Positions 14,755 to 24,806 of a stretch of DNA of 24,806 nucleotides are shown piece by piece (positions within the stretch are counted from its first letter, which is position 1; every line of letters begins with the position of its first letter). The notes under the pieces are model-generated. The model was not told the origin of the DNA. It saw only the letters and a list, made by a program, of their open reading frames with translations, and searched no databases. The position numbers and the translations under genes are program-made. Origin of the DNA: a virus (lineage: Duplodnaviria > Heunggongvirae > Uroviricota > Caudoviricetes). The stretch lies in IMG/VR virus record IMGVR_UViG_2541047691_000012; one strand, 5' to 3'.

Positions 14755-14875
14755 CCGTTTACGGGATTTTTAAATCCCGCTTTCGCCTGTTTTGTGCGCA
14801 CTTCATGTTTTATGGCGCGTTTTTTGCTCATTTACGGGATTTGTGAATCCCGTTTCTGTCTGTTTTTTGTTTCCA
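14755..14875. repeat. Two ~42 bp direct repeats (73 bp period), each carrying a palindrome ACGGGATTT-n-AATCCCG; candidate parC centromere/operator
   Basis: Copy 1 at 14758-14800 (tttacgggatttttaaatcccgctttcgcctgttttgtgcgca); copy 2 at 14831-14875 (tttacgggatttgtgaatcccgtttctgtctgttttttgtttcc). Copy 1 is in the A-parM intergenic space; copy 2 overlaps the last codons of A. Confidence 0.55.
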
Positions 14876-17625
14876 CTGGTCAGGCCACCCCGCAGCAGGT
14901 CTGCTTTGCGGCGGGCGCGTTCAGTGGTTTCACTGATTCTCTGTGCGTGCTCTGCGTCACGGATGGCGCGCAGCATGTCAGAAAGCACGGTAACGGGTGT
15001 TTTCATGGTGTTCTGGTCTTGCTGAAGTGTGGATGCCAGGCGTGCGGCGGCTTCGGGGTCTGATGCCCCTAGCTGTTCCAGATAACTGGCGACCGGGTTA
15101 TGGCGGATCTCCGTGCTGCTTACGCCGTGATTACGGCTCAGGCGCTGCCAGAGCTGCGTGATTCGGTTGTCCGGGCGGGTATCCGGTTTGCGTACAATTT
15201 CAAATCCCTGCGGTGCAATGATGCTGCCGTCAACGTACAGACTGCCGCCCCGTAACAGGTGCTGCATCTGCTGTTCACCGATATGCAGGCCGAGAGATTC
15301 AGCAGACTCCCGCCATTCTTTAGCGAGTAACTCGTGGTTATCAGGCAAAGGCTGTGGCTGTTTGCGGCTCTGTGTCCAGTTCTGCATTTCAGCACTGCTG
15401 TTTTTTGCCTGTTTGTCACGCAGCGAACGCATCAGCGCCCGGCGTTCGTGCCGTTTCAGTGAGCGCATCCATTCATTCACTTCAACGCCGTCAGGGAGCT
15501 GCGGCCACAGTGCTGGCCGTTCTTCCGGCTGTTCTGTCCCGTTGTTGTTCGTTTCCTGTACACGGGGACAGTTATTGCCACGAGTCCAAGGGGCGGCAGG
15601 GCCGCCCTGAAGGTCAAAACCATTTTCGCGGGTGCTGTCCTCCGCTTCCGGTTTACGTCTTACCAGCTTCCAGTTATCCGGATGCGTGCACACACGGGAG
15701 GATTCCCCGATGAATGGCGACCAGATCCCGTAAATCTGTACACTCTGTTCGCCGTAATCGTTAAGCTCATCTGCGAGGTCGTAGGCTGTGCGAATCAGGT
15801 AGTCCTTGCGCGGAACAAGTACGCCACCCTGTTTTTCAATGTAGGTGGCAAAACACCCGGCATCAGCGGCAGCAAGAACCGCATCCATTGCGTCATCCTT
15901 CAGCCGTTGCGGGCCTTCCGGGTTGCGTGCCATCTGGCTGGCAAGGCGGCGGAGTTCACGCCACACCTGACGGGAGGGGATGCCAAAGAACTGGAACTGG
16001 CGGACCCGGTGAAGGCGCGCCCAGCCGATGGCGCGCTCCACGCTCTCGGCCATTGATTTATCTGTTTCGTGGTCAACGCGTGGCTTGCCCGTTTTCGGGT
16101 CGATGCCATCCACGGCGCGGCTGTCCAGGTTCTTTCCGATGTAGGTGGCGATGTAGCTGGTTGGCGTGCCTTTTGAGCCGTCGACGAACTCCGCCTTAAA
16201 GCGTGGGGTAATATCATCACCCAGCTCGTGACGATCTTCCTGAATGGCAATATCGCGGGTGTGGGACACAATGGTGTCGATTTCTTCCGGATGAGCAAAG
16301 ACCATCATATGCCAGTGCACGGTGCCGTCATGGTGAGGCTCCACCGTGCGGATGCCATACCAGCGCAGGCCGTCGCGGTTCAGTTTCTTGCGGACCGCTG
16401 CAAAAAACGTGTTAACCAGGTAATCGCTGGAGTCGCGCATGGTGGCCCCGTTCCATTTGGGATTCGGATGACCGTTCTCTGTTGTGGCGTGGTATTTTGA
16501 CGGGCAGGTGACAGTCAGAAACACCGCTTTGTCGCCACGGGCTTCGGCCAGAAGTTCCAGCCCCTTCATGGTGGCCATCATTTCTGCCTTACGGTGAACC
16601 GGGTTACTTACTCCCGCGTAATACACTGTCTCGAGATCAATCGTGAACCCGTCTTCGTTTTCCAGCATGAAACTTTTCAGGAAATCGCGTGTTTTCTCGC
16701 TCTGTGCGCGAAACTCGCTTAACGCGTCCTGGCTCAGATAGGGTGATGTTTTTCTGGAAACCAGACAGGCGGCGCGGAGTTGTTCTTCTCTCCACTCGCA
16801 ACGTAACAGCCACAGTTTGCGTTTCCACCATTCCGCACAGGTCAGGCGAAGGATTGCGCCCGGCAGCAGCTCCGTGTCCGGTTCGTTCCTCCGGTCTTTA
16901 TCTGTTGTCAGTGCGTCATAATGTGGAGGCATGATGTGCAGGTGTAACGCCATGCGGGCCAGCATCTGATACGCCTTCAGCGTTACATCCATGGTCAGTT
17001 CGCCATCGGTCGCGCCAAAGCCATCGCAGAGTTTTTCGAAGGTGCTGCTGAACATCGCCGCCGTCATGGTGGCCAGCGTCTGTATCTGGTGTTTGTTGAG
17101 CTGCGGCAGGTAAAGCAAATCGTCCAGGCGTTCGCGTCCGGCAAGGGAGCGATAACCCTGTGTCAGCCAGCGGTGATCGGTGCGCTCCAGACGTTCGAAT
17201 ATTTTGCGCAGGGTTCCGCGTGCATAGCGTTCCGCCTGCCAGCTCTTTTTGCCTTTCCGGCGATCGGCTTCCTGTTTTTTGCGCAGGAAGGAGAGGTGGC
17301 GAATAAGCGGATCGCGCAGATAGGACGGCAGCAGGCGCAGCGAGGCCATGGCTTCATCCACCGCGCCGCGTGCCTGTTTTCTGGCGTCTCCTGCCAGTGC
17401 GATGGTTTTGTCCTGTTTTTCCTGTGCGTCCAGGCTTTTATTAATCAGGTTGCCCAGCGGCGTGGCGGAGAACGCCGCATCAGCCATTTTCTGGCGGCGC
17501 TCGTTCTCTGCCCGGTAGGCATCCAGCCAGGAGGAAAGCACGGATTCAGGAGCGGGGATCCCCGTTCCTTCACGCCCTACTGCGTGGCGCGGTTGTTGCC
17601 AGTCCCTGATGTACTCTGTCGTCAT
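14803..17625 (-). CDS. A: Rolling-circle replication initiator endonuclease (P2 gpA-like)
   Basis: 940 aa. HHDGTVHWHMMVF matches the P2 A motif HHDGTPHWHMMLF, and YIATYIGKN matches the YxxxY catalytic tyrosine pair (P2 YVAKYISKN). Longer than P2 A (761 aa). Confidence 0.9.
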   Translation of the reverse strand: MTTEYIRDWQQPRHAVGREGTGIPAPESVLSSWLDAYRAENERRQKMADAAFSATPLGNLINKSLDAQEKQDKTIALAGDARKQARGAVDEAMASLRLLPSYLRDPLIRHLSFLRKKQEADRRKGKKSWQAERYARGTLRKIFERLERTDHRWLTQGYRSLAGRERLDDLLYLPQLNKHQIQTLATMTAAMFSSTFEKLCDGFGATDGELTMDVTLKAYQMLARMALHLHIMPPHYDALTTDKDRRNEPDTELLPGAILRLTCAEWWKRKLWLLRCEWREEQLRAACLVSRKTSPYLSQDALSEFRAQSEKTRDFLKSFMLENEDGFTIDLETVYYAGVSNPVHRKAEMMATMKGLELLAEARGDKAVFLTVTCPSKYHATTENGHPNPKWNGATMRDSSDYLVNTFFAAVRKKLNRDGLRWYGIRTVEPHHDGTVHWHMMVFAHPEEIDTIVSHTRDIAIQEDRHELGDDITPRFKAEFVDGSKGTPTSYIATYIGKNLDSRAVDGIDPKTGKPRVDHETDKSMAESVERAIGWARLHRVRQFQFFGIPSRQVWRELRRLASQMARNPEGPQRLKDDAMDAVLAAADAGCFATYIEKQGGVLVPRKDYLIRTAYDLADELNDYGEQSVQIYGIWSPFIGESSRVCTHPDNWKLVRRKPEAEDSTRENGFDLQGGPAAPWTRGNNCPRVQETNNNGTEQPEERPALWPQLPDGVEVNEWMRSLKRHERRALMRSLRDKQAKNSSAEMQNWTQSRKQPQPLPDNHELLAKEWRESAESLGLHIGEQQMQHLLRGGSLYVDGSIIAPQGFEIVRKPDTRPDNRITQLWQRLSRNHGVSSTEIRHNPVASYLEQLGASDPEAAARLASTLQQDQNTMKTPVTVLSDMLRAIRDAEHAQRISETTERARRKADLLRGGLTSGNKKQTETGFTNPVNEQKTRHKT

Positions 17626-18669: not shown

Positions 18670-19494
18670 TTACTTCACCGGAACAAACGGAACAGCGGTG
18701 TTGCTGGTCATGTATTGCGGCAGCGTGCCGTTCCATTTGTTGATTGCTTCCAGCTCCATAACGCCGGGATTCTGGCGCAGAGCTTCACCGCGTAAACGAA
18801 TGGCGTCGGCTTCAGCCTGGGCTTTTGTGCGAATGGCATCAGCCTGTCCGGCAGCTTCTGCGCGCAACATGTTGGCTTCTGCTTCGCGTTGCTTGACTTC
18901 CTGTTCGCGTTGCAGGGTTTTCTGGTTTGCCGTGACTTTGGCGTTAATGCTGTCGATAACGGTTGGCGGATATTCCGGTTTACCGACATAAGAGAGGCTC
19001 ATGACCTGAATGCCGATAGGTGTCATTTCTGACTGAATGTCTTTAAGTGCTGAATCCAGCAGTTCAGACTTGCCACCGTCGATAAACTTATCGGTGGTCA
19101 TTTTGCTGGCCAGTCGGTTGAGTGCATCGGCGATCTTCTGGCGCAGGTCAGTGTCGGTAATGTCATCCACGCCTTTGCGGTAGGTCTGAAACACAGTGGT
19201 AACTTTGGATGGATCAACTTTGTAGGCCACGCCGATGTGATAGCCGATGGTTGTGCCGTCACTCATCTGGAAGTTGAACGGCTCATCGTAAGTCTTCATT
19301 TGTTTGAAAGTCGGGAAGATGTAAACCTCTGTATTCCAGCCTGTCCAGTAGCGGCCAACGCCAACTACTTCACCGACGCCTTTATCGTCGCCCAGTTTGT
19401 TGACTTTGATGCCTACATTGCCCGGCTCCACGCGGTCACAGCCAACCAGAAGTGTGGTCATCAGGAGAGGGATGAGTGGTAATAGTTTTTTCAT
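18670..19494 (-). CDS. SPFH/band-7 (prohibitin/stomatin-like) lipoprotein
   Basis: 274 aa. Signal peptide plus lipobox (MKKLLPLIPLLMTTLLVGC). Core and C-terminal Ala/Glu/Arg/Gln-rich coiled-coil region (QREQEVKQREAEANMLRAEAAGQADAIRTKAQAEADAIRLRGEALRQNPGVMELEAINKW) typical of SPFH proteins. ATGA overlap with the upstream small membrane gene. Confidence 0.8.
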   Translation of the reverse strand: MKKLLPLIPLLMTTLLVGCDRVEPGNVGIKVNKLGDDKGVGEVVGVGRYWTGWNTEVYIFPTFKQMKTYDEPFNFQMSDGTTIGYHIGVAYKVDPSKVTTVFQTYRKGVDDITDTDLRQKIADALNRLASKMTTDKFIDGGKSELLDSALKDIQSEMTPIGIQVMSLSYVGKPEYPPTVIDSINAKVTANQKTLQREQEVKQREAEANMLRAEAAGQADAIRTKAQAEADAIRLRGEALRQNPGVMELEAINKWNGTLPQYMTSNTAVPFVPVK

Positions 19495-19703
19495 TGTTTG
19501 GTTTCCATAATTGCTTTGATGTAGTTACTGAAAAAGCGAACAACGCCCGCCGGGTACAGCAAGGCGACAAAAATGCCCAGCAATACCAGGAAGGAGCTGT
19601 CTGATGAAATCATTCTGGGAAGTAGCCCCACATACAGAATGAGAGAAACGAGGACGCATACCAGCGCCCACATGTATGCGCGAAACCAGGTCTTTTTGTT
19701 CAT
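19491..19703 (-). CDS. Small two-helix membrane protein (70 aa), translationally coupled to the SPFH lipoprotein gene
   Basis: Two hydrophobic segments (WALVCVLVSLILYVGLL and FLVLLGIFVALLYPAGVV). SD AAAGGA upstream. Its stop overlaps the SPFH start. Confidence 0.6.
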   Translation of the reverse strand: MNKKTWFRAYMWALVCVLVSLILYVGLLPRMISSDSSFLVLLGIFVALLYPAGVVRFFSNYIKAIMETKQ

Positions 19704-19714
19704 ATCGCGGTCCT

Positions 19715-20014
19715 TTACTGGTTAAGGAAAAAATCAAAAACCTTGTCGATGCGTTGCAGTAGCTCTCGTTGCATTGTTTCCGGCGTTTCTGGTTCACCAG
19801 GCGAACCCAGTGGTGCGCAGAAATCAGCGATTTCATGATGGAGCGTCAGGCGAATGGCTGGAGCCATGGTTCTGGCGTGCTCCAGCTCATCCAGCAGTGC
19901 CAGCACAGCAGACGGCGAGAGCATTGCGCGAAATGCCAGTAATTTTTGAGGTGTTGCCATTCGTTGCAGGGCAAATGCCAGTTCGCGTAGCTTCTGGTGG
20001 TTGATGGTGCTCAT
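19715..20014 (-). CDS. Hypothetical protein (99 aa)
   Basis: ORF whose start overlaps the stop of the upstream 88 aa gene (ATGA). Function not recognised. Confidence 0.5.
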   Translation of the reverse strand: MSTINHQKLRELAFALQRMATPQKLLAFRAMLSPSAVLALLDELEHARTMAPAIRLTLHHEIADFCAPLGSPGEPETPETMQRELLQRIDKVFDFFLNQ

Positions 20015-20277
20015 GTTCTGGCTTCCTTCAGTAGCTGGTTAAACATGTGAGTAAGTGGATTGCTACACCCGAACGGCATCGGGTTTACGTGGTAAGAAGC
20101 CTGGCCTCCAGTTTTGCGAGCGCGACCACCTGTGCTGCGGTTTGTTCTGATGACTAAGCCGCCGCGCCAAAGTTGGCGTAACTCAGCATTAATGGCTGTG
20201 GTTGGAGTATTCAGTGCTGCGGCGATCTCTCCGCCGCTACACCCCGGATGAGTAGCGATGTAGTCCAGAATGGTCAT
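20011..20277 (-). CDS. Putative winged-helix DNA-binding protein (88 aa)
   Basis: N-terminus MTILDYIATHPGCSGGEIAAALNTPTTAINAELRQLWRGGLVIR has the pattern of a winged HTH; Gly/Arg-rich middle. Translationally coupled on both sides. Confidence 0.5.
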   Translation of the reverse strand: MTILDYIATHPGCSGGEIAAALNTPTTAINAELRQLWRGGLVIRTNRSTGGRARKTGGQASYHVNPMPFGCSNPLTHMFNQLLKEART

Positions 20278-20477
20278 CTGCGTGGCTCCTGTACCTGTCG
20301 GATAAGGTTTACCCGCGCCACATTAGTGGCGCAGAAGTAAGTGCCGTCAGTGAGGTAGATGTGGTGTGCATCCTTTTCCGAACGATGTTTGTCGATAGTG
20401 GTAATCAGGCGTTCGTCGACCTCGTATTCGCGCCCTCTGGAGGTAAAGCGAACGACGGGAAAATGCTTAATTGCCAT
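20274..20477 (-). CDS. Hypothetical small protein (67 aa)
   Basis: ATG with SD AAGGGGG about 7 nt upstream. First gene of a coupled three-gene set. Confidence 0.45.
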   Translation of the reverse strand: MAIKHFPVVRFTSRGREYEVDERLITTIDKHRSEKDAHHIYLTDGTYFCATNVARVNLIRQVQEPRR

Positions 20478-20500
20478 TGCGCCCCCTTTGTCCAGTAACT

Positions 20501-20911
20501 CTATGCGTTAAATACGGTGCACTGTGCGTCATCAATGAATGCGACTTGAGAGCGCTCTATCAGGCGGAGATTTGTCAGAATTTCTGATTCCCTTATGGGG
20601 TGAGGAGTGATCAGGTATTTATCCTGTAACCCGGCGATAATGGTGTATCGCTGTAGCTCCGAGCCAATTGTGTAAATAAGGCGTCCGGTGTTAGACAAAT
20701 CCAGTCCGGTGACTGGTTGTGTTCTGAGAACCGCCAGTTCAGCATCCTGTTTTGCGATAATTTCGGCTGCTTCTGCCGTGACTCTTGCGACTATCAGTGT
20801 GTGGGTTGCGACGTCCATATGATTATTTGCTATGGCTTTTTTCGCTACTTCGTTTTCTGTCTTTGAAATTTCTTTCAGTGCTCTGATGATACCTTCTTCT
20901 TTTGCGTGCAT
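20501..20911 (-). CDS. Hypothetical protein (136 aa)
   Basis: ORF with SD GGAG about 10 nt upstream. Preceded by an AT-rich intergenic region. Function not recognised. Confidence 0.5.
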   Translation of the reverse strand: MHAKEEGIIRALKEISKTENEVAKKAIANNHMDVATHTLIVARVTAEAAEIIAKQDAELAVLRTQPVTGLDLSNTGRLIYTIGSELQRYTIIAGLQDKYLITPHPIRESEILTNLRLIERSQVAFIDDAQCTVFNA

Positions 20912-21004
20912 TTTTGTATCTCCGTTATTTGCGTGTGCGAATACCTCCGTTAATACGGATGGTTTTCACGTTTTCTTATTTAATTTGATGTTTTATTTGT
21001 ATCG

Positions 21005-21118
21005 TTATTCACCAGTGAAAAAACGTTCAATCTTTTTTACTGAATGAATAATTCGCATAATTCCAATGGCGCAGGCCACCGAAATAATCAGAACAAGCCA
21101 TGAGATAAATATACTCAT
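21005..21118 (-). CDS. Small hydrophobic membrane peptide (37 aa), not in the supplied ORF track
   Basis: Hand-translated from the minus strand: MSIFISWLVLIISVACAIGIMRIIHSVKKIERFFTGE. Single TM helix plus basic tail. The ATG overlaps the stop of the upstream 81 aa gene (ATGA). SD GGGGAA about 9 nt upstream. Locally AT-rich. Confidence 0.4.
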   Translation of the reverse strand: MSIFISWLVLIISVACAIGIMRIIHSVKKIERFFTGE

Positions 21119-21357
21119 GCGATATTCCCCAGCTTATACGGTTCAATATGTTCCCCGCATTCTGCGGCACAGATCAGCTCGGAAAGTTCGTTAAGTGCAT
21201 CCAGATCATCAGCGTAAAAAGCGACGTCATACAAACTCCGGATTGCCCTGGTCAATGAGTCACGGGCTGCACGTTCAGCATGAGCGCCTGATGCACTTAA
21301 GCGAAAATAAAAACGCTCAAGTGCTTTGTTAATGAGAGTTTTATATTCTTTGCCCAT
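21115..21357 (-). CDS. Hypothetical protein (~80 aa)
   Basis: ORF; ATG at 21357 preferred over the adjacent GTG at 21360. SD AAAGGG upstream. Confidence 0.5.
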   Translation of the reverse strand: MGKEYKTLINKALERFYFRLSASGAHAERAARDSLTRAIRSLYDVAFYADDLDALNELSELICAAECGEHIEPYKLGNIA

Positions 21358-21368
21358 CACAACGCCCT

Positions 21369-21656
21369 TTAATCTGCTTTCTGTATTTCAGCTTCTGAAT
21401 CCATACAAATAATTTCGATATAGGGTTCATCGCCATTAACTTGGCGTGCCTTTTCATCTTCGCTAATGATTTCTCGTACGGTCTGGTACGGAAGTTCCAC
21501 AAGCAGTCGCGTGCCGTTCAGATAAACGTAAGTGGCTTCGTCGGCTCCGTTTTTACCCGCCGGAGTCACTCCGTCAATAGCGGATGCACGTAATAACAGT
21601 TCACCGCGAAAATCAATAAAACGGATAAATACACCTTGTGCATGGTCTTTGGTCAT
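21369..21656 (-). CDS. Hypothetical protein (95 aa)
   Basis: Start set at the internal ATG (MTKDHAQGVFIRF...). The longer GTG-initiated form would overlap the upstream gene by ~100 nt out of frame. Confidence 0.5.
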   Translation of the reverse strand: MTKDHAQGVFIRFIDFRGELLLRASAIDGVTPAGKNGADEATYVYLNGTRLLVELPYQTVREIISEDEKARQVNGDEPYIEIICMDSEAEIQKAD

Positions 21657-21666
21657 AAAGCACCCG

Positions 21667-22017
21667 TTATAAATCAGCCTGTTTAATAAAACTTTGCCCG
21701 CGAAGCAGACGATCAACCGTGCGAAGTGCTTCGTATAATGTGAAATCCTGCCCAAACTGATTGTCGCCACAGCTCAATGCAAAAATGCGGTTTCCGGTAA
21801 ACGGATTGCGTGGGCATTTGTGGACCACAATTCCAGCTTTCTCAATCAGCCAGGTATGCTCGCCGATTTGTTTTACTGGGTAGCCATCCGGCGTTGCGTG
21901 TGTTTCGCTCAGGCTGTAGCGAGAGTTGCTACGTGATGCACTGGTAGCGAAACGGTTAGCGTGGCGTTCCGCACCGTTGCGGAAGCGCGGCTGTGAAGAA
22001 TTGCGCTGTAGTTTCAT
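21667..22017 (-). CDS. Hypothetical protein (116 aa), first gene after the divergent promoter region
   Basis: ATG start. Basic Ser/Arg-rich N-terminus. Function not recognised. Confidence 0.5.
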   Translation of the reverse strand: MKLQRNSSQPRFRNGAERHANRFATSASRSNSRYSLSETHATPDGYPVKQIGEHTWLIEKAGIVVHKCPRNPFTGNRIFALSCGDNQFGQDFTLYEALRTVDRLLRGQSFIKQADL

Positions 22018-22152
22018 ATTAAAACTCTGTACCTTCGGTAAGGTGTACTCGTGTCACCTTGTATTGATTTGTGGTATTTTTTGTGTGTCTAGGACTTGGA
22101 CTGGCCGGTTCAGGTCCTGGCTTATGTTTAATTAAATTGTTTAGAGGTTTTC

Positions 22153-22344
22153 ATGTCAGAAGATAAAAAAGTTGTTAATTTGTTGAGTGACCTTAGTGCT
22201 GCTCTGGATAACATTAACCCTCCTAGGGTAAAAACGACGGGTGATAAAGACGCATTAAACGCAGAGATTCATATATTACTGGCGTTAGTAACTGACAAAA
22301 TTCAGCGTAAATACCCACCTGTCACACAACTGGTTGATTTTTAA
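22153..22344 (+). CDS. Small plus-strand protein (63 aa) in the AT-rich island, convergent with the 140 aa gene
   Basis: ATG with SD GAGG 5 nt upstream. Only plus-strand gene in an otherwise minus-strand early region, which suggests independent expression. Confidence 0.45.
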   Translation: MSEDKKVVNLLSDLSAALDNINPPRVKTTGDKDALNAEIHILLALVTDKIQRKYPPVTQLVDF

Positions 22345-22350
22345 TTTGAT

Positions 22351-22773
22351 TTATGCCGGGCTGCTCCCGGCATCTTCTAGCTGCCATAATGTCTCGTCAC
22401 CTGATAGAGCAAAACGAAATGAGTGAAGTATATCCTCCCGAGAGAAGCTCACGGCTACAGCTGCGGGAAAGTCAAATATAATCCCACCTTCATTTTTAAA
22501 ACGATTACGCAATTGATAGGCTATCGGTTTGATTTGTGCAGGAAGAGTATCTATATCTCTTCCATTGACAACAGAATCTTTGTTTTCCAGTACTGATTTA
22601 GCGATTAGATATAGATGCCAGTAACTGGTTACAATTGTTACTCCTGTGATGTGTCGTAAATTAATTGCAATTCGTCCGTTATTATGTTTTTCCGCAAGGT
22701 ATTTCAGGTTATCAATTAATGCTTGGTCATTTTTTGAAATAGTTATTGTGAAATCTGACGTGTTTGTTTTCAT
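22351..22773 (-). CDS. Hypothetical protein (140 aa) encoded in AT-rich DNA, second gene of the early operon
   Basis: ORF starting 4 nt after the Cox-like stop. Local GC is clearly lower than in flanking phage genes. No recognisable motif. Confidence 0.55.
   Translation of the reverse strand: MKTNTSDFTITISKNDQALIDNLKYLAEKHNNGRIAINLRHITGVTIVTSYWHLYLIAKSVLENKDSVVNGRDIDTLPAQIKPIAYQLRNRFKNEGGIIFDFPAAVAVSFSREDILHSFRFALSGDETLWQLEDAGSSPA
22353..22373. terminator. Stem-loop between the convergent genes (atgccggg-ctgct-cccggcat), overlapping the last codons of the 140 aa gene
   Basis: 8 bp perfect inverted repeat; flanking U-tracts are weak. Confidence 0.35.
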
Positions 22774-22777
22774 ACGA

Positions 22778-23299
22778 TTAGTTGCCTCTGTTGTTTCTGA
22801 GTTGGTTCAGTTTTGAGCTTCTGCCTGTATAAACTCGCTTACCGTTAATGGTCTGGCAGTCTTCTTTATTAGCTGGAGAGAACTTCCTTTTCTGGCGGTC
22901 ATACGTCCAGTAACTTTTCCAGTTGTGCCATTCTGGGGGCTCGTGCTCTGGTAGCTCATCAGCCAACTTGTCCCACTCTTTGGCGTTAAACCACCATACT
23001 CCGTCTGAGTTTTCATCTTCCGGGTTTGTGCGCGTCTTGTGTCCCGGCATTTGACCGCGATGAATGGCTACGCGCAGTGCAGATTTTGTTAGCCCAATAT
23101 ATGCCGCGCCTTTTTCCAGAGAGCAAAGCCCGGCGATCGGACCATCCAGCCGTAAAGTCGCTCCTTTTTTGTAGGAACGCTTTTTCTTGTTTTCTTCGTG
23201 TTCGTCGTCGTTGGCGGCATCAATGGATCCGCTGAGTGTGTCACTTTCCTGAAGTGGTTGGTGGTCAGATAACTCTTTATCGGCAATGAAGTCCCGCAT
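22778..23299 (-). CDS. cox: Cox-like excisionase/repressor with extended N- and C-termini
   Basis: 173 aa. ATG with strong SD AAGAGGA (6 nt spacing). Central region AAYIGLTKSALRVAIHRGQMPG...DGVWWFNAKEWD resembles P2 Cox (FAKLIGKSTGAVRRMIDKGKLP...GEYWVYLPAWN). Divergent from the C repressor gene. Confidence 0.6.
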   Translation of the reverse strand: MRDFIADKELSDHQPLQESDTLSGSIDAANDDEHEENKKKRSYKKGATLRLDGPIAGLCSLEKGAAYIGLTKSALRVAIHRGQMPGHKTRTNPEDENSDGVWWFNAKEWDKLADELPEHEPPEWHNWKSYWTYDRQKRKFSPANKEDCQTINGKRVYTGRSSKLNQLRNNRGN

Positions 23300-23402
23300 T
23301 TGTTATCCTCTTGCGTTGGTGCGCTTGTTGCGCTTTGTGATGGTTTGTTTTGGTTTGTTTTCTTCACCATGTGGTGAAGAATGAAAAGAGGATACTCATC
23401 GT
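23300..23402. promoter_or_regulatory. Immunity switch region: divergent Pe/Pc promoters with candidate operators
   Basis: 103 bp between divergent cox-like and C genes. Tandem direct repeat tggtttgttt x2 (23341-23360), imperfect palindrome ttcaccatgtggtgaa (23363-23378), and gcgcttgt/gcgctttgt repeats. Confidence 0.55.
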
Positions 23403-23744
23403 ATGGTGAACATGTCAAGAGATTACGCCAAAAAACTAAAGGCGATCAGAAATGCAGAAAAACTTACACAATCTCAGTTTTCGCAAGTAACGGGGGTTTC
23501 TGTAGGGACTATAGGGAATTATGAGTCTGGATATAAACCTGCGCGAATTGAGGTTGTAGAAAAAGTAATCCAAGTCGAGCGATTCGAAAAATACACTATG
23601 TGGATACTTCACGACAAAACATTTCCCGCTGCCGGGCAGGTTGCCCCGGCTCTCTCTCTTGATGGCTCTATTCAGTCGGAGGGCGATCAGGTTTCAATCG
23701 GTATTACCCAAAAATCACCCCGATCAGGCCGCAATGTTGGCTGA
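23403..23744 (+). CDS. C: Immunity repressor C (P2 C-like, HTH XRE-type)
   Basis: 113 aa. HTH region (LTQSQFSQVTGVSVGTIGNYESG). C-terminal EKYTMWILHDKTFPAAGQVAPALSL resembles P2 C (TKYTLWFMTNQIAPESGQIAPALAH). Directly upstream of int on the same strand. Confidence 0.75.
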   Translation: MVNMSRDYAKKLKAIRNAEKLTQSQFSQVTGVSVGTIGNYESGYKPARIEVVEKVIQVERFEKYTMWILHDKTFPAAGQVAPALSLDGSIQSEGDQVSIGITQKSPRSGRNVG

Positions 23745-23813
23745 CTCTACACATTGAGCGAATTACATATCGCAAGGAGTGTTTAGTTAATTTATCCGTT
23801 GGAGGGGCTAATC

Positions 23814-24806
23814 ATGTCGATTAAGCAACTCAAAGACGGACGTTATCAGGTCGATGTCAGACCGCAGGGGGCGGAAGGAAAGCGGATTCGAAAAATCTTT
23901 GCCCTGAAATCAAAGGCTCAGGAGTTTGAGAAGTATGTGTTACAGAACTTTCATGACAAGCCATGGCAGGCTAAGCCAGCTGATCAGCGGCGATTATCAG
24001 AGCTGCTTGATGCGTGGTGGATGCTTGATGGGCGTAATCAGGCTTACGGGGATAGCTACAGGGTTAGGCTAGGGAAGGTTGTTCGTGAAATGGGAGATCC
24101 TCGCGCCAGTCAGATGACGCGAAAATTTATGCTTGAATATCGGTCAGAGAAATTACAGGCCGGATTAATGCCGTCCAGTATTAATCGTGACTTATGCGTA
24201 CTGTCTACCATGTTCACGGTGCTGATTGAAGCTGAGGTCTTTCACAACGCGAACCCTGTACGCGGTATACGAAAACTGAAAGTTCAGAACACAGAGATGG
24301 CCTTTCTTTCTGATGATGAGATTGAACGGCTTCTTGAGCGACTGGAGGGTGATGCGCGTCGTGTTGCCATTCTGTGTCTTTCTACTGGTGCCCGATGGAG
24401 TGAAGCATCGGAACTACGTGGAGAGCATATCGTTGGCAACCGGGTGACGTTCTTTAACACCAAAAACGGAAAATCCCGTTCGGTTCCTGTGGCGGATTCG
24501 GTCGTGCCTCTGATTAAAACCCGTCGAACGGGGTTATTGTATCAGGTTGATTATCTGAAGTTCCGGGAGATTCTTCAGGAGGTGAAACCGGATTTGCCGA
24601 AGGGGCAGGCTACGCATGTCATGCGTCATACATTTGCCACACACTTTATGATGAATGGCGGAAATATTGTTACGTTGCAACGAATCCTGGGGCACGCAAC
24701 GATTCAGCAAACAATGACGTACGCTCATTTTTCGCCGGACTTCTTACAGGACGCGATCAACTTTAATCCGCTGGCTGAAAGTGTCCATAAACTGTCCATC
24801 GATTAG
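23814..24806 (+). CDS. int: Tyrosine integrase (P2 Int-like site-specific recombinase)
   Basis: ATG at 23814 with SD GGAGGGG at 6 nt spacing (the track ORF begins at a TTG five codons earlier). Catalytic-domain features: ARWSE, HVMRHTFATHF, LGHATIQQTMTYAH. The stop codon is the last three bases of the window. Confidence 0.9.
   Translation: MSIKQLKDGRYQVDVRPQGAEGKRIRKIFALKSKAQEFEKYVLQNFHDKPWQAKPADQRRLSELLDAWWMLDGRNQAYGDSYRVRLGKVVREMGDPRASQMTRKFMLEYRSEKLQAGLMPSSINRDLCVLSTMFTVLIEAEVFHNANPVRGIRKLKVQNTEMAFLSDDEIERLLERLEGDARRVAILCLSTGARWSEASELRGEHIVGNRVTFFNTKNGKSRSVPVADSVVPLIKTRRTGLLYQVDYLKFREILQEVKPDLPKGQATHVMRHTFATHFMMNGGNIVTLQRILGHATIQQTMTYAHFSPDFLQDAINFNPLAESVHKLSID

Follow-up and report, generated by a model that had tools for sequence, protein, structure and literature searches.

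Type I toxins such as Hok/Gef, Ldr, Ibs, TisB, ShoB, DinQ and ZorO are shorter than 60 amino acids and carry one hydrophobic helix and a charged C-terminus. AcrZ, MgrB, MgtS, SPO1 gp56 and T4 Imm are small inner-membrane regulators of bacteria or phages, and proteins of the type of T4 Imm, HK97 gp15 and P22 SieA are small, phage-encoded and inner-membrane as well. In phages P2 and 186, the first block of early genes ends in a terminator, which is found after gene B in P2 and after fil-dhr in 186 (tR1, annotated as anti-terminated). The closest described relative of the gene considered here is gp07 of phage P88, the product of which is labelled "membrane protein" (YP_009113050.1). Our gene codes for a peptide of 37 residues and is located in a stretch of 24,806 nucleotides, which is referred to below as the window. 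The peptide resembles the type I toxins in its size, its single hydrophobic helix and its charged C-terminus; unlike theirs, its gene shows neither a promoter or UTR of its own nor a predicted antisense RNA, matches no sequence family, and is coupled to its neighbour within a phage operon. With the small inner-membrane regulators it shares the size class, the single transmembrane (TM) helix and presumed helix-helix contacts, which is an analogy only; PDB profile and Pfam scans detected no homology to them. P88 gp07, WP_000021656.1 and the window peptide are the same gene, differing by allelic variants alone.

Its sequence matches identify the window as a prophage of E. coli of the P88-like kind (Xuanwuvirus, P2 family). 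A 1.4-kb query around the open reading frame (ORF) has matches in 1366 of 5426 complete E. coli genomes, and also in the Xuanwuvirus (Peduoviridae, P2-like) phages P88, P884B11, 520873 and vB_EcoM-569R5 and in Citrobacter phage Shae_phiSM. The order on the minus strand is a Pe-like promoter, cox (PF10743), a gene of 140 aa, DUF4761, a gene of 95 aa (phrog_3800), DUF4754 and the peptide gene, followed by a spacer, variable genes and the replication gene A (14803-17625). The C repressor and the integrase are divergently oriented at 23403-24806. The peptide gene thus closes the conserved first block of the early operon from Cox to A, and would be transcribed from the promoter-like site upstream of cox, which is probably the early promoter Pe. 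The features of the operon on which the following paragraphs rely are:

23389..23418, minus strand: promoter-like site TTGACA-18-TATCCT upstream of cox, from the promoter scan and the operon layout
21115..21357, minus strand: DUF4754 gene, 80 aa from the annotated ATG (Pfam PF15946, E=2.9e-54)
21125..21130, minus strand: GGGGAA, a Shine-Dalgarno-like purine run 6 nt before the peptide ATG, within the DUF4754 coding sequence
21115..21118, minus strand: ATGA, overlap of the peptide ATG with the DUF4754 TGA, a translational coupling signal
21005..21118, minus strand: coding sequence of the 37-aa small membrane protein, from its translation, selection in its own frame only and existing annotation

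Reading the minus strand over 20600-21600, together with the ORF listing, gives MSIFISWLVLIISVACAIGIMRIIHSVKKIERFFTGE for 21005..21118, exactly the translation proposed in the preliminary description. The start/stop overlap and the GGGGAA Shine-Dalgarno (SD) sequence reported there are also both present (21118-21115 and 21130-21125), with bases shared between the ATG at 21118-21116 and the TGA that ends the upstream gene (80/81 aa). The GC content is 0.28-0.35 over 20940-21119, which covers the peptide ORF and the spacer, vs about 0.45-0.55 in the flanks. The ORF is AT-rich because its coding is rich in Ile, Phe and Lys, and this composition does not indicate a foreign origin.

The gene is already known and catalogued, though uncharacterised. 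In NZ_CP027219, a chromosome 99.9% identical to the window, it is the "hypothetical protein" WP_000021656.1, and vB_EcoM-569R5 labels it "putative membrane protein". The description of the gene as unannotated is therefore true solely for the ORF track used at that stage, with its length cutoff, since the gene is present in RefSeq, GenBank and UniRef. The peptides of P88 (gp07) and Citrobacter phage Shae_phiSM are both 100% identical to that of the window, with the same position and coupling, and the exact sequence occurs on at least 1000 public contigs. Near-identical members are grouped in UniRef as "Prophage membrane protein" (A0A2Y8H055_ECOLX), from E. coli, Shigella flexneri and Salmonella enterica. 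With a query of 146 nt, the gene was found in 1384 of the 5426 complete E. coli genomes, and the feature annotated there is consistently a "hypothetical protein". Carriers thus make up about 25% of complete E. coli genomes and include O157:H7, EPEC E2348/69, O104:H4 and UTI89, and the family extends to prophages of Shigella, Salmonella, E. albertii and Citrobacter. By identity, length (37-41 aa) and the ATGA overlap right after DUF4754, the window peptide belongs to the uncurated P88 gp07/WP_000021656 family; it matches no family in Pfam, PHROG or NCBIfam. A literature search for the sequence, for DUF4754, for DUF4761 and for the function of the P88 early genes returned no paper mentioning any of them.

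The 37-codon frame is almost certainly a real gene. In a set of 33 distinct in-frame alleles, dN/dS(JC) is 0.26 in the peptide frame vs 1.02 and 2.13 in the other sense frames, so the genuine coding sequence that had been claimed is borne out in this frame only. The peptide frame contains no stops in these alleles, whereas the two remaining sense frames have 102 and 57, and the variable sites number 34, 24 and 10 at codon positions 3, 1 and 2, respectively. Constraint applies to both halves of the protein (dN/dS of 0.25 in the TM segment, 0.27 in the tail). In the most divergent lineages, pS is 0.59 vs a pN of 0.23, and in the lineages with invariant residues the synonymous sites are near saturation (pS 0.6-0.8). 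These values also bear on the idea that residue identity is irrelevant, the ORF being a leader-like spacer which keeps ribosomes on the mRNA, or a chance ORF: its very short length and the frameshifted tails tolerated in about 9% of copies speak for it, yet a dN/dS of about 0.26 in both halves, nine invariant residues at a pS of 0.6-0.8 and a stop placed 45 nt before the downstream hairpin, too far for a terminating ribosome to influence it, leave this idea hardly credible.

Conservation of the frame in related prophages, the absence of which would have spoken against a gene, was confirmed across wide distances. The peptide ORF is present in all 84 IMG/VR loci fetched via the DUF4754 gene, and in 14 divergent loci in which DUF4754 is 44-49% identical to a divergent query. 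These 14 came from a viral scan with a reordered DUF4754 alignment (A3), while a second viral scan (alignment A2) just recovered the contigs of the first; the ORF of the 14 has 41 aa and ends in ...LFTGDKRRK. A DUF4754 scan of genome contigs yielded one locus only, from E. albertii, and an exhaustive HMMER scan of 1.84 billion representatives yielded only nine clusters, of 22-59 aa and down to 47% identity. The contexts of four of these clusters show DUF4761, DUF4754 and the peptide in this order with the same 4-nt overlap, and variable genes downstream. Homologs 54-68% identical occupy the same place behind divergent DUF4754 genes, and the synteny is kept in homologs down to 47-57% identity. 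One candidate for a divergent homolog, the copy of phage 503458 (57% identical), was rejected, as the record contains several indels. In this record (L092, NC_049341, positions 300-520), small indels affect both DUF4754 and the peptide, including a 5-nt deletion and an extra A in an A-run, and the copy is degraded or poorly sequenced. For annotation, which is where the chief value of the analysis lies, the result is that an ORF below the length threshold is real and constrained, and is not to be dismissed.

The following features were located within the protein:

within 21005..21118, minus strand: TM helix at about residues 3-21 and cytoplasmic amphipathic tail at residues 22-37, both predicted from hydropathy and charge
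21033..21038, minus strand: A6 run in codons 27-29, frameshift-prone, from the tail variants P0002 and P0003
21018..21023, minus strand: T6 run in codons 32-34, frameshift-prone, yielding 45-aa forms

Residues 3-21 have a mean Kyte-Doolittle value of 2.7 over 19 residues (2.68 for the window peptide), and the Hessa sum of the TM segment is about -3 kcal/mol (-2.9 for the same 19-residue segment). The N-terminus preceding this segment consists of two uncharged residues, while the tail has a net charge of +1 to +3, a hydrophobic moment of 1.2-2.0 and an amphipathic periodicity. The peptide is accordingly predicted by these simple scales, with good confidence, to be a single-pass inner-membrane protein, and the N-out/C-in orientation follows from the positive-inside rule. 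The single TM helix with a basic tail noted beforehand is therefore in agreement with our hydropathy and charge analysis, which is itself a prediction. Over ten alleles, M1, S6, W7, L10, G19, I24, I30, E31 and F34 are invariant, and F4, I11, A17, I20, M21, R22, I23 and K28 nearly so. Both homopolymer runs give rise to variant tails. The "...KRLNAFSL..." variants (P0002 and P0003) have lost one A from the A6 run, and the T6 run yields forms of 45 aa ending in "...ERFSLANNRANKTTG", which account for 16 of 183 locus copies (about 9%); a single frameshifted form of 59 aa occurs in L091. The last 5-9 residues may be dispensable, or the prophages concerned may be decaying; the frameshifted copies are a minority against the long-term conservation of the tail.

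DUF4754 is immediately upstream of the peptide in all loci examined, and the peptide was never found without it. The CATGA junction is kept in all 63 distinct contexts, including lineages in which DUF4754 is only 26-45% identical, and every lineage has a purine-rich match to the anti-SD (-4.2 to -10.3 kcal/mol) despite the differing C-terminus of DUF4754. The translational coupling to the upstream ORF that had been suggested for the window is thus supported, at the level of the ATGA junction, throughout the family. The partner itself was modelled by AF2 (pLDDT 88) as a three-helix bundle with a disordered C-terminal tail. Its structure was set aside as a functional clue, since the bundle is generic and the matches of the PDB profile are designed helical repeats; the fold search likewise gave no significant match, with best Foldseek E-values of 1.7 (PDB) and 0.21 (BFVD). 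Proteins of 103-116 aa classified as DUF4754 were considered as possible fusions of DUF4754 with the peptide and discarded, as most of them are singletons and their reading crosses the peptide region out of frame. Such entries stem from frameshifts or assembly errors and provide no Rosetta-stone evidence. Many database entries for DUF4754 of 103-128 aa (P0010-P0055) result from frameshifts that carry the reading into the +1 frame of the peptide gene (…ISHEYIYLMACSDYF…). The same 41-aa peptide allele (P0004, in L089 and L090) follows DUF4754 alleles 40% and 83% identical to that of the window, which points to recombination at the coupled junction and to the absence of strict co-evolution between the two genes.

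Behind the peptide gene, the comparison of loci revealed two further features:

20912..21004, minus strand: spacer of 93 nt from the peptide stop to the next (variable) gene, from sequence comparison
20946..20959, no strand assigned: hairpin with a GC stem of 5 bp, TCCGY-N4-RCGGA, in the spacer, from the conserved motif and positional comparison

The conservation of the spacer extends to the SD of the following gene, though at least seven different genes come after it among the loci. Since it is kept while the following genes differ, the spacer marks a recombination boundary at the 3' side of the peptide gene. The hairpin is preceded by GAAAAC(C)A and begins 45 nt after the peptide stop. Its strict form is found in 52 of the 63 distinct contexts; about ten loci have TCCGT-ATTA-ATGGA, a variant in which pairing is kept solely by a G·U wobble of the sense-strand RNA and which thus favours pairing on that strand, one locus has a stem of 4 bp, and the hairpin is absent from the L179-L186 lineage. 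A compensatory change was found at one pair only, which 36 of 500 shuffles equal. The U-tract on the sense strand is degenerate, and on the antisense strand the scanner scores the hairpin and its T-run as terminator-like in four lineages. The hairpin may act as a weak attenuator of the tR1 kind, separate the conserved block from the variable cargo as a boundary in both directions, or serve as a protein-binding site. In the lineage which does not have the usual hairpin, the peptide has 41 aa and a second hydrophobic ORF of 31 aa, MKNVKAILTIATVWLIFQVCALIWLALKIWG, starts 12 nt after its stop (L179, 1878-1973, also in L180-L186).

The position of this hairpin is that of 186 tR1 and of the P2 terminator after gene B. 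Both phages, like the peptide locus, have an AT-rich spacer and a short GC hairpin followed by the SD of the next gene, and the early host-takeover genes fil/dhr of 186 and orf78-B of P2 occupy the same place as the peptide gene, being the last small genes of the first early block before tR1 and the terminator, respectively. The peptide gene, in the first block and upstream of a tR1-type hairpin, may accordingly be viewed as the positional counterpart of 186 fil/dhr, the analogy being one of position only. BLASTP of the peptide against Fil and Dhr produced no alignment at E<=100, and unlike the peptide, Fil and Dhr are not predicted membrane proteins; no small hydrophobic ORF was found in the early operons of P2 and 186. 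A resemblance between the C-terminus of 186 Fil (IIRIVHFVIK) and that of the peptide (IMRIIHSVKK) was attributed to chance, as 74 of 2000 shuffles equal it for the window allele and other alleles do not show it. Membership amongst holins or antiholins, whose genes adjoin that of the endolysin in a lysis cassette of the late operon, was not supported either, as the peptide gene belongs to the early Cox-to-A operon, where it is flanked by DUF4754 and the middle genes, and the peptide has no holin match in PHROG or Pfam.

Our preferred reading, to which we give about an even chance, is that of a small bitopic inner-membrane protein of P88-like temperate phages, made together with DUF4754 early in lytic growth. 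Transcription of the early operon, the peptide gene included, would start at Pe and be shut down in the lysogen, and ribosomes ending DUF4754 would re-initiate on the peptide, so that both products would be made together. Residues 3-21 would insert as one TM helix with the uncharged two-residue N-terminus outside, leaving the net-positive amphipathic tail, in which R22, I24, K28, I30, E31 and F34 are about invariant, on the cytoplasmic face. The peptide might then work by specific contacts of the helix and the tail (conserved S6, W7, L10, A17 and G19), either anchoring DUF4754, a soluble three-helix protein, at the membrane or regulating it there, or else modulating a host inner-membrane protein. 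We infer this role of membrane partner or regulator from the coupling, the co-occurrence, the conserved residues and the position in the operon; Pfam, PHROG, NCBIfam, PADLOC and PDB provided no functional homology for the peptide. That the peptide acts together with DUF4754 is a tentative proposal, somewhat short of even, and a model with a specific complex is weakened by the occurrence of P0004 behind DUF4754 alleles 83% and 40% identical to that of the window. The action of the peptide could be part of the early host takeover, and a corresponding phenotype, for instance interference with division or replication, is possible but already on the unlikely side. Working out its role with DUF4754 would supply a missing piece of the early phase of a prophage lineage that is very common in the P2 family.

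A bolder version of the preferred reading, which we consider unlikely, takes DUF4754 and the 37-41-aa peptide as an unrecognised two-gene early module, in which the peptide would tether or activate DUF4754 at the inner membrane. The module would disturb a host process such as division, replication or envelope function, in functional analogy to 186 fil/dhr, and the hairpin would be its tR1-like or bidirectional boundary. If true, this would be a common but unstudied host-takeover function carried by about a quarter of complete E. coli genomes. The preferred reading can also be changed in the opposite direction, with the peptide as a lone host-takeover factor that acts, much like the small regulators SPO1 gp56, MgrB or AcrZ, on a host membrane protein (for instance divisome, protease or transporter) and DUF4754 as just the neighbour that supplies the ribosomes. 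The conserved small or polar TM residues (S6, S/A13, A17 and G19), the conserved tail, the position equivalent to 186 fil/dhr and the recombination of one peptide allele behind very different DUF4754 alleles would all suit such a factor, while the constant presence of DUF4754 in the loci examined and the lack of homology to Fil or any known regulator do not, and we regard it as a rather unlikely explanation too.

Less probable still is a superinfection-exclusion or membrane immunity protein which, like T4 Imm, HK97 gp15 or P22 SieA, would block DNA entry at the inner membrane. In favour of it, such proteins are small and inner-membrane, and E. coli prophages carry the peptide gene very commonly. 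It has no promoter of its own, however, and the Pe early operon is shut by the C repressor in lysogens, so that any exclusion would be confined to lytic growth. The gene is moreover located outside the known P2 cargo positions and has no match in PADLOC or PHROG; neither expression of its own from the prophage nor a family or defence model places it amongst exclusion proteins. We consider this improbable.

The preliminary description had also pointed out a resemblance to small membrane toxins of type I or to small phage membrane regulators. The second part of this proposal is reasonable, and the first was not supported. A peptide of the type I kind would form pores or cause loss of the membrane potential, with an antisense RNA restraining its synthesis, and the small size, the basic tail, the AT-rich gene and the one very hydrophobic helix (37 aa with a KD of 2.68, within the <60 aa and one TM helix of type I toxins) are what makes this attractive. 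Their genes have an own promoter and a long structured 5' UTR, whereas no promoter-like site precedes the peptide ORF, and in all 63 contexts the start is inside the upstream stop codon. Over 20300-23500, shuffled sequences have at least as many promoter-like and terminator-like sites as the actual one. The antisense side gave a similar picture. The hairpin and T-run 45 nt past the stop would terminate a transcript of the antisense strand, and a weak antisense promoter-like site is located at 20863..20890 on the plus strand. However, beyond the hairpin no antisense signal, and no promoter in particular, is conserved across the four lineages compared (window, P88, L085 and L089), and the weak antisense promoter matches inside the AT-rich ORF of P88, L085 and L089 are at chance level. 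An antisense RNA ending at the hairpin would stop short of the ORF, because the hairpin lies beyond its stop. Rfam searches over 19500-23800 at E<=1 found no match, including to Sok, Rdl, Sib and IstR, so neither Rfam nor the promoter scans point to an RNA antitoxin.

The searches at the protein level were in line with this. The window peptide has no match in Pfam at E<=0.1, and the Hok/Gef, Ldr, Ibs, TisB and ShoB families were not found. Ten family members searched against Pfam at E<=10 returned noise only (PET117, DUF2975 and DUF6007), as did the peptide profile against PDB, and PADLOC reported nothing for the peptide and nine neighbours. The tail, with its conserved acidic residues and specific invariant positions, also argues against a toxin. 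Given these negative tests and a start that is always coupled within a long operon, the peptide locus does not have the gene organisation that defines type I toxins, and a membrane-depolarising peptide of this type is very improbable. The locus is not an overlooked toxin-antitoxin locus, and nothing in it points to a new kind of system.

Some observations were made elsewhere in the early operon. The region from the peptide spacer to gene A (20501-20911 down to about 17632) is mosaic, and contains a gene of 136 aa (phrog_9338) without counterpart in P88 itself. It also contains, at 18670-19703 on the minus strand, a gene for an SPFH-domain protein of 274 aa and an overlapping upstream hydrophobic ORF of 70 aa. 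The P88 counterparts of this pair are annotated as lipoprotein/serine protease and membrane protein, respectively, and PADLOC has no match for either gene; it looks like a pair of an SPFH protein and a small membrane partner carried as phage cargo. Between DUF4761 and the 140-aa gene, an AT-rich gap contains a 14-bp hairpin with 6 GC pairs (22089-22120, plus strand). The coding strand is disputed in this vicinity, where vB_EcoM-569R5 has a 63-aa ORF on the plus strand (22153-22344) and RefSeq a hypothetical protein on the minus strand.
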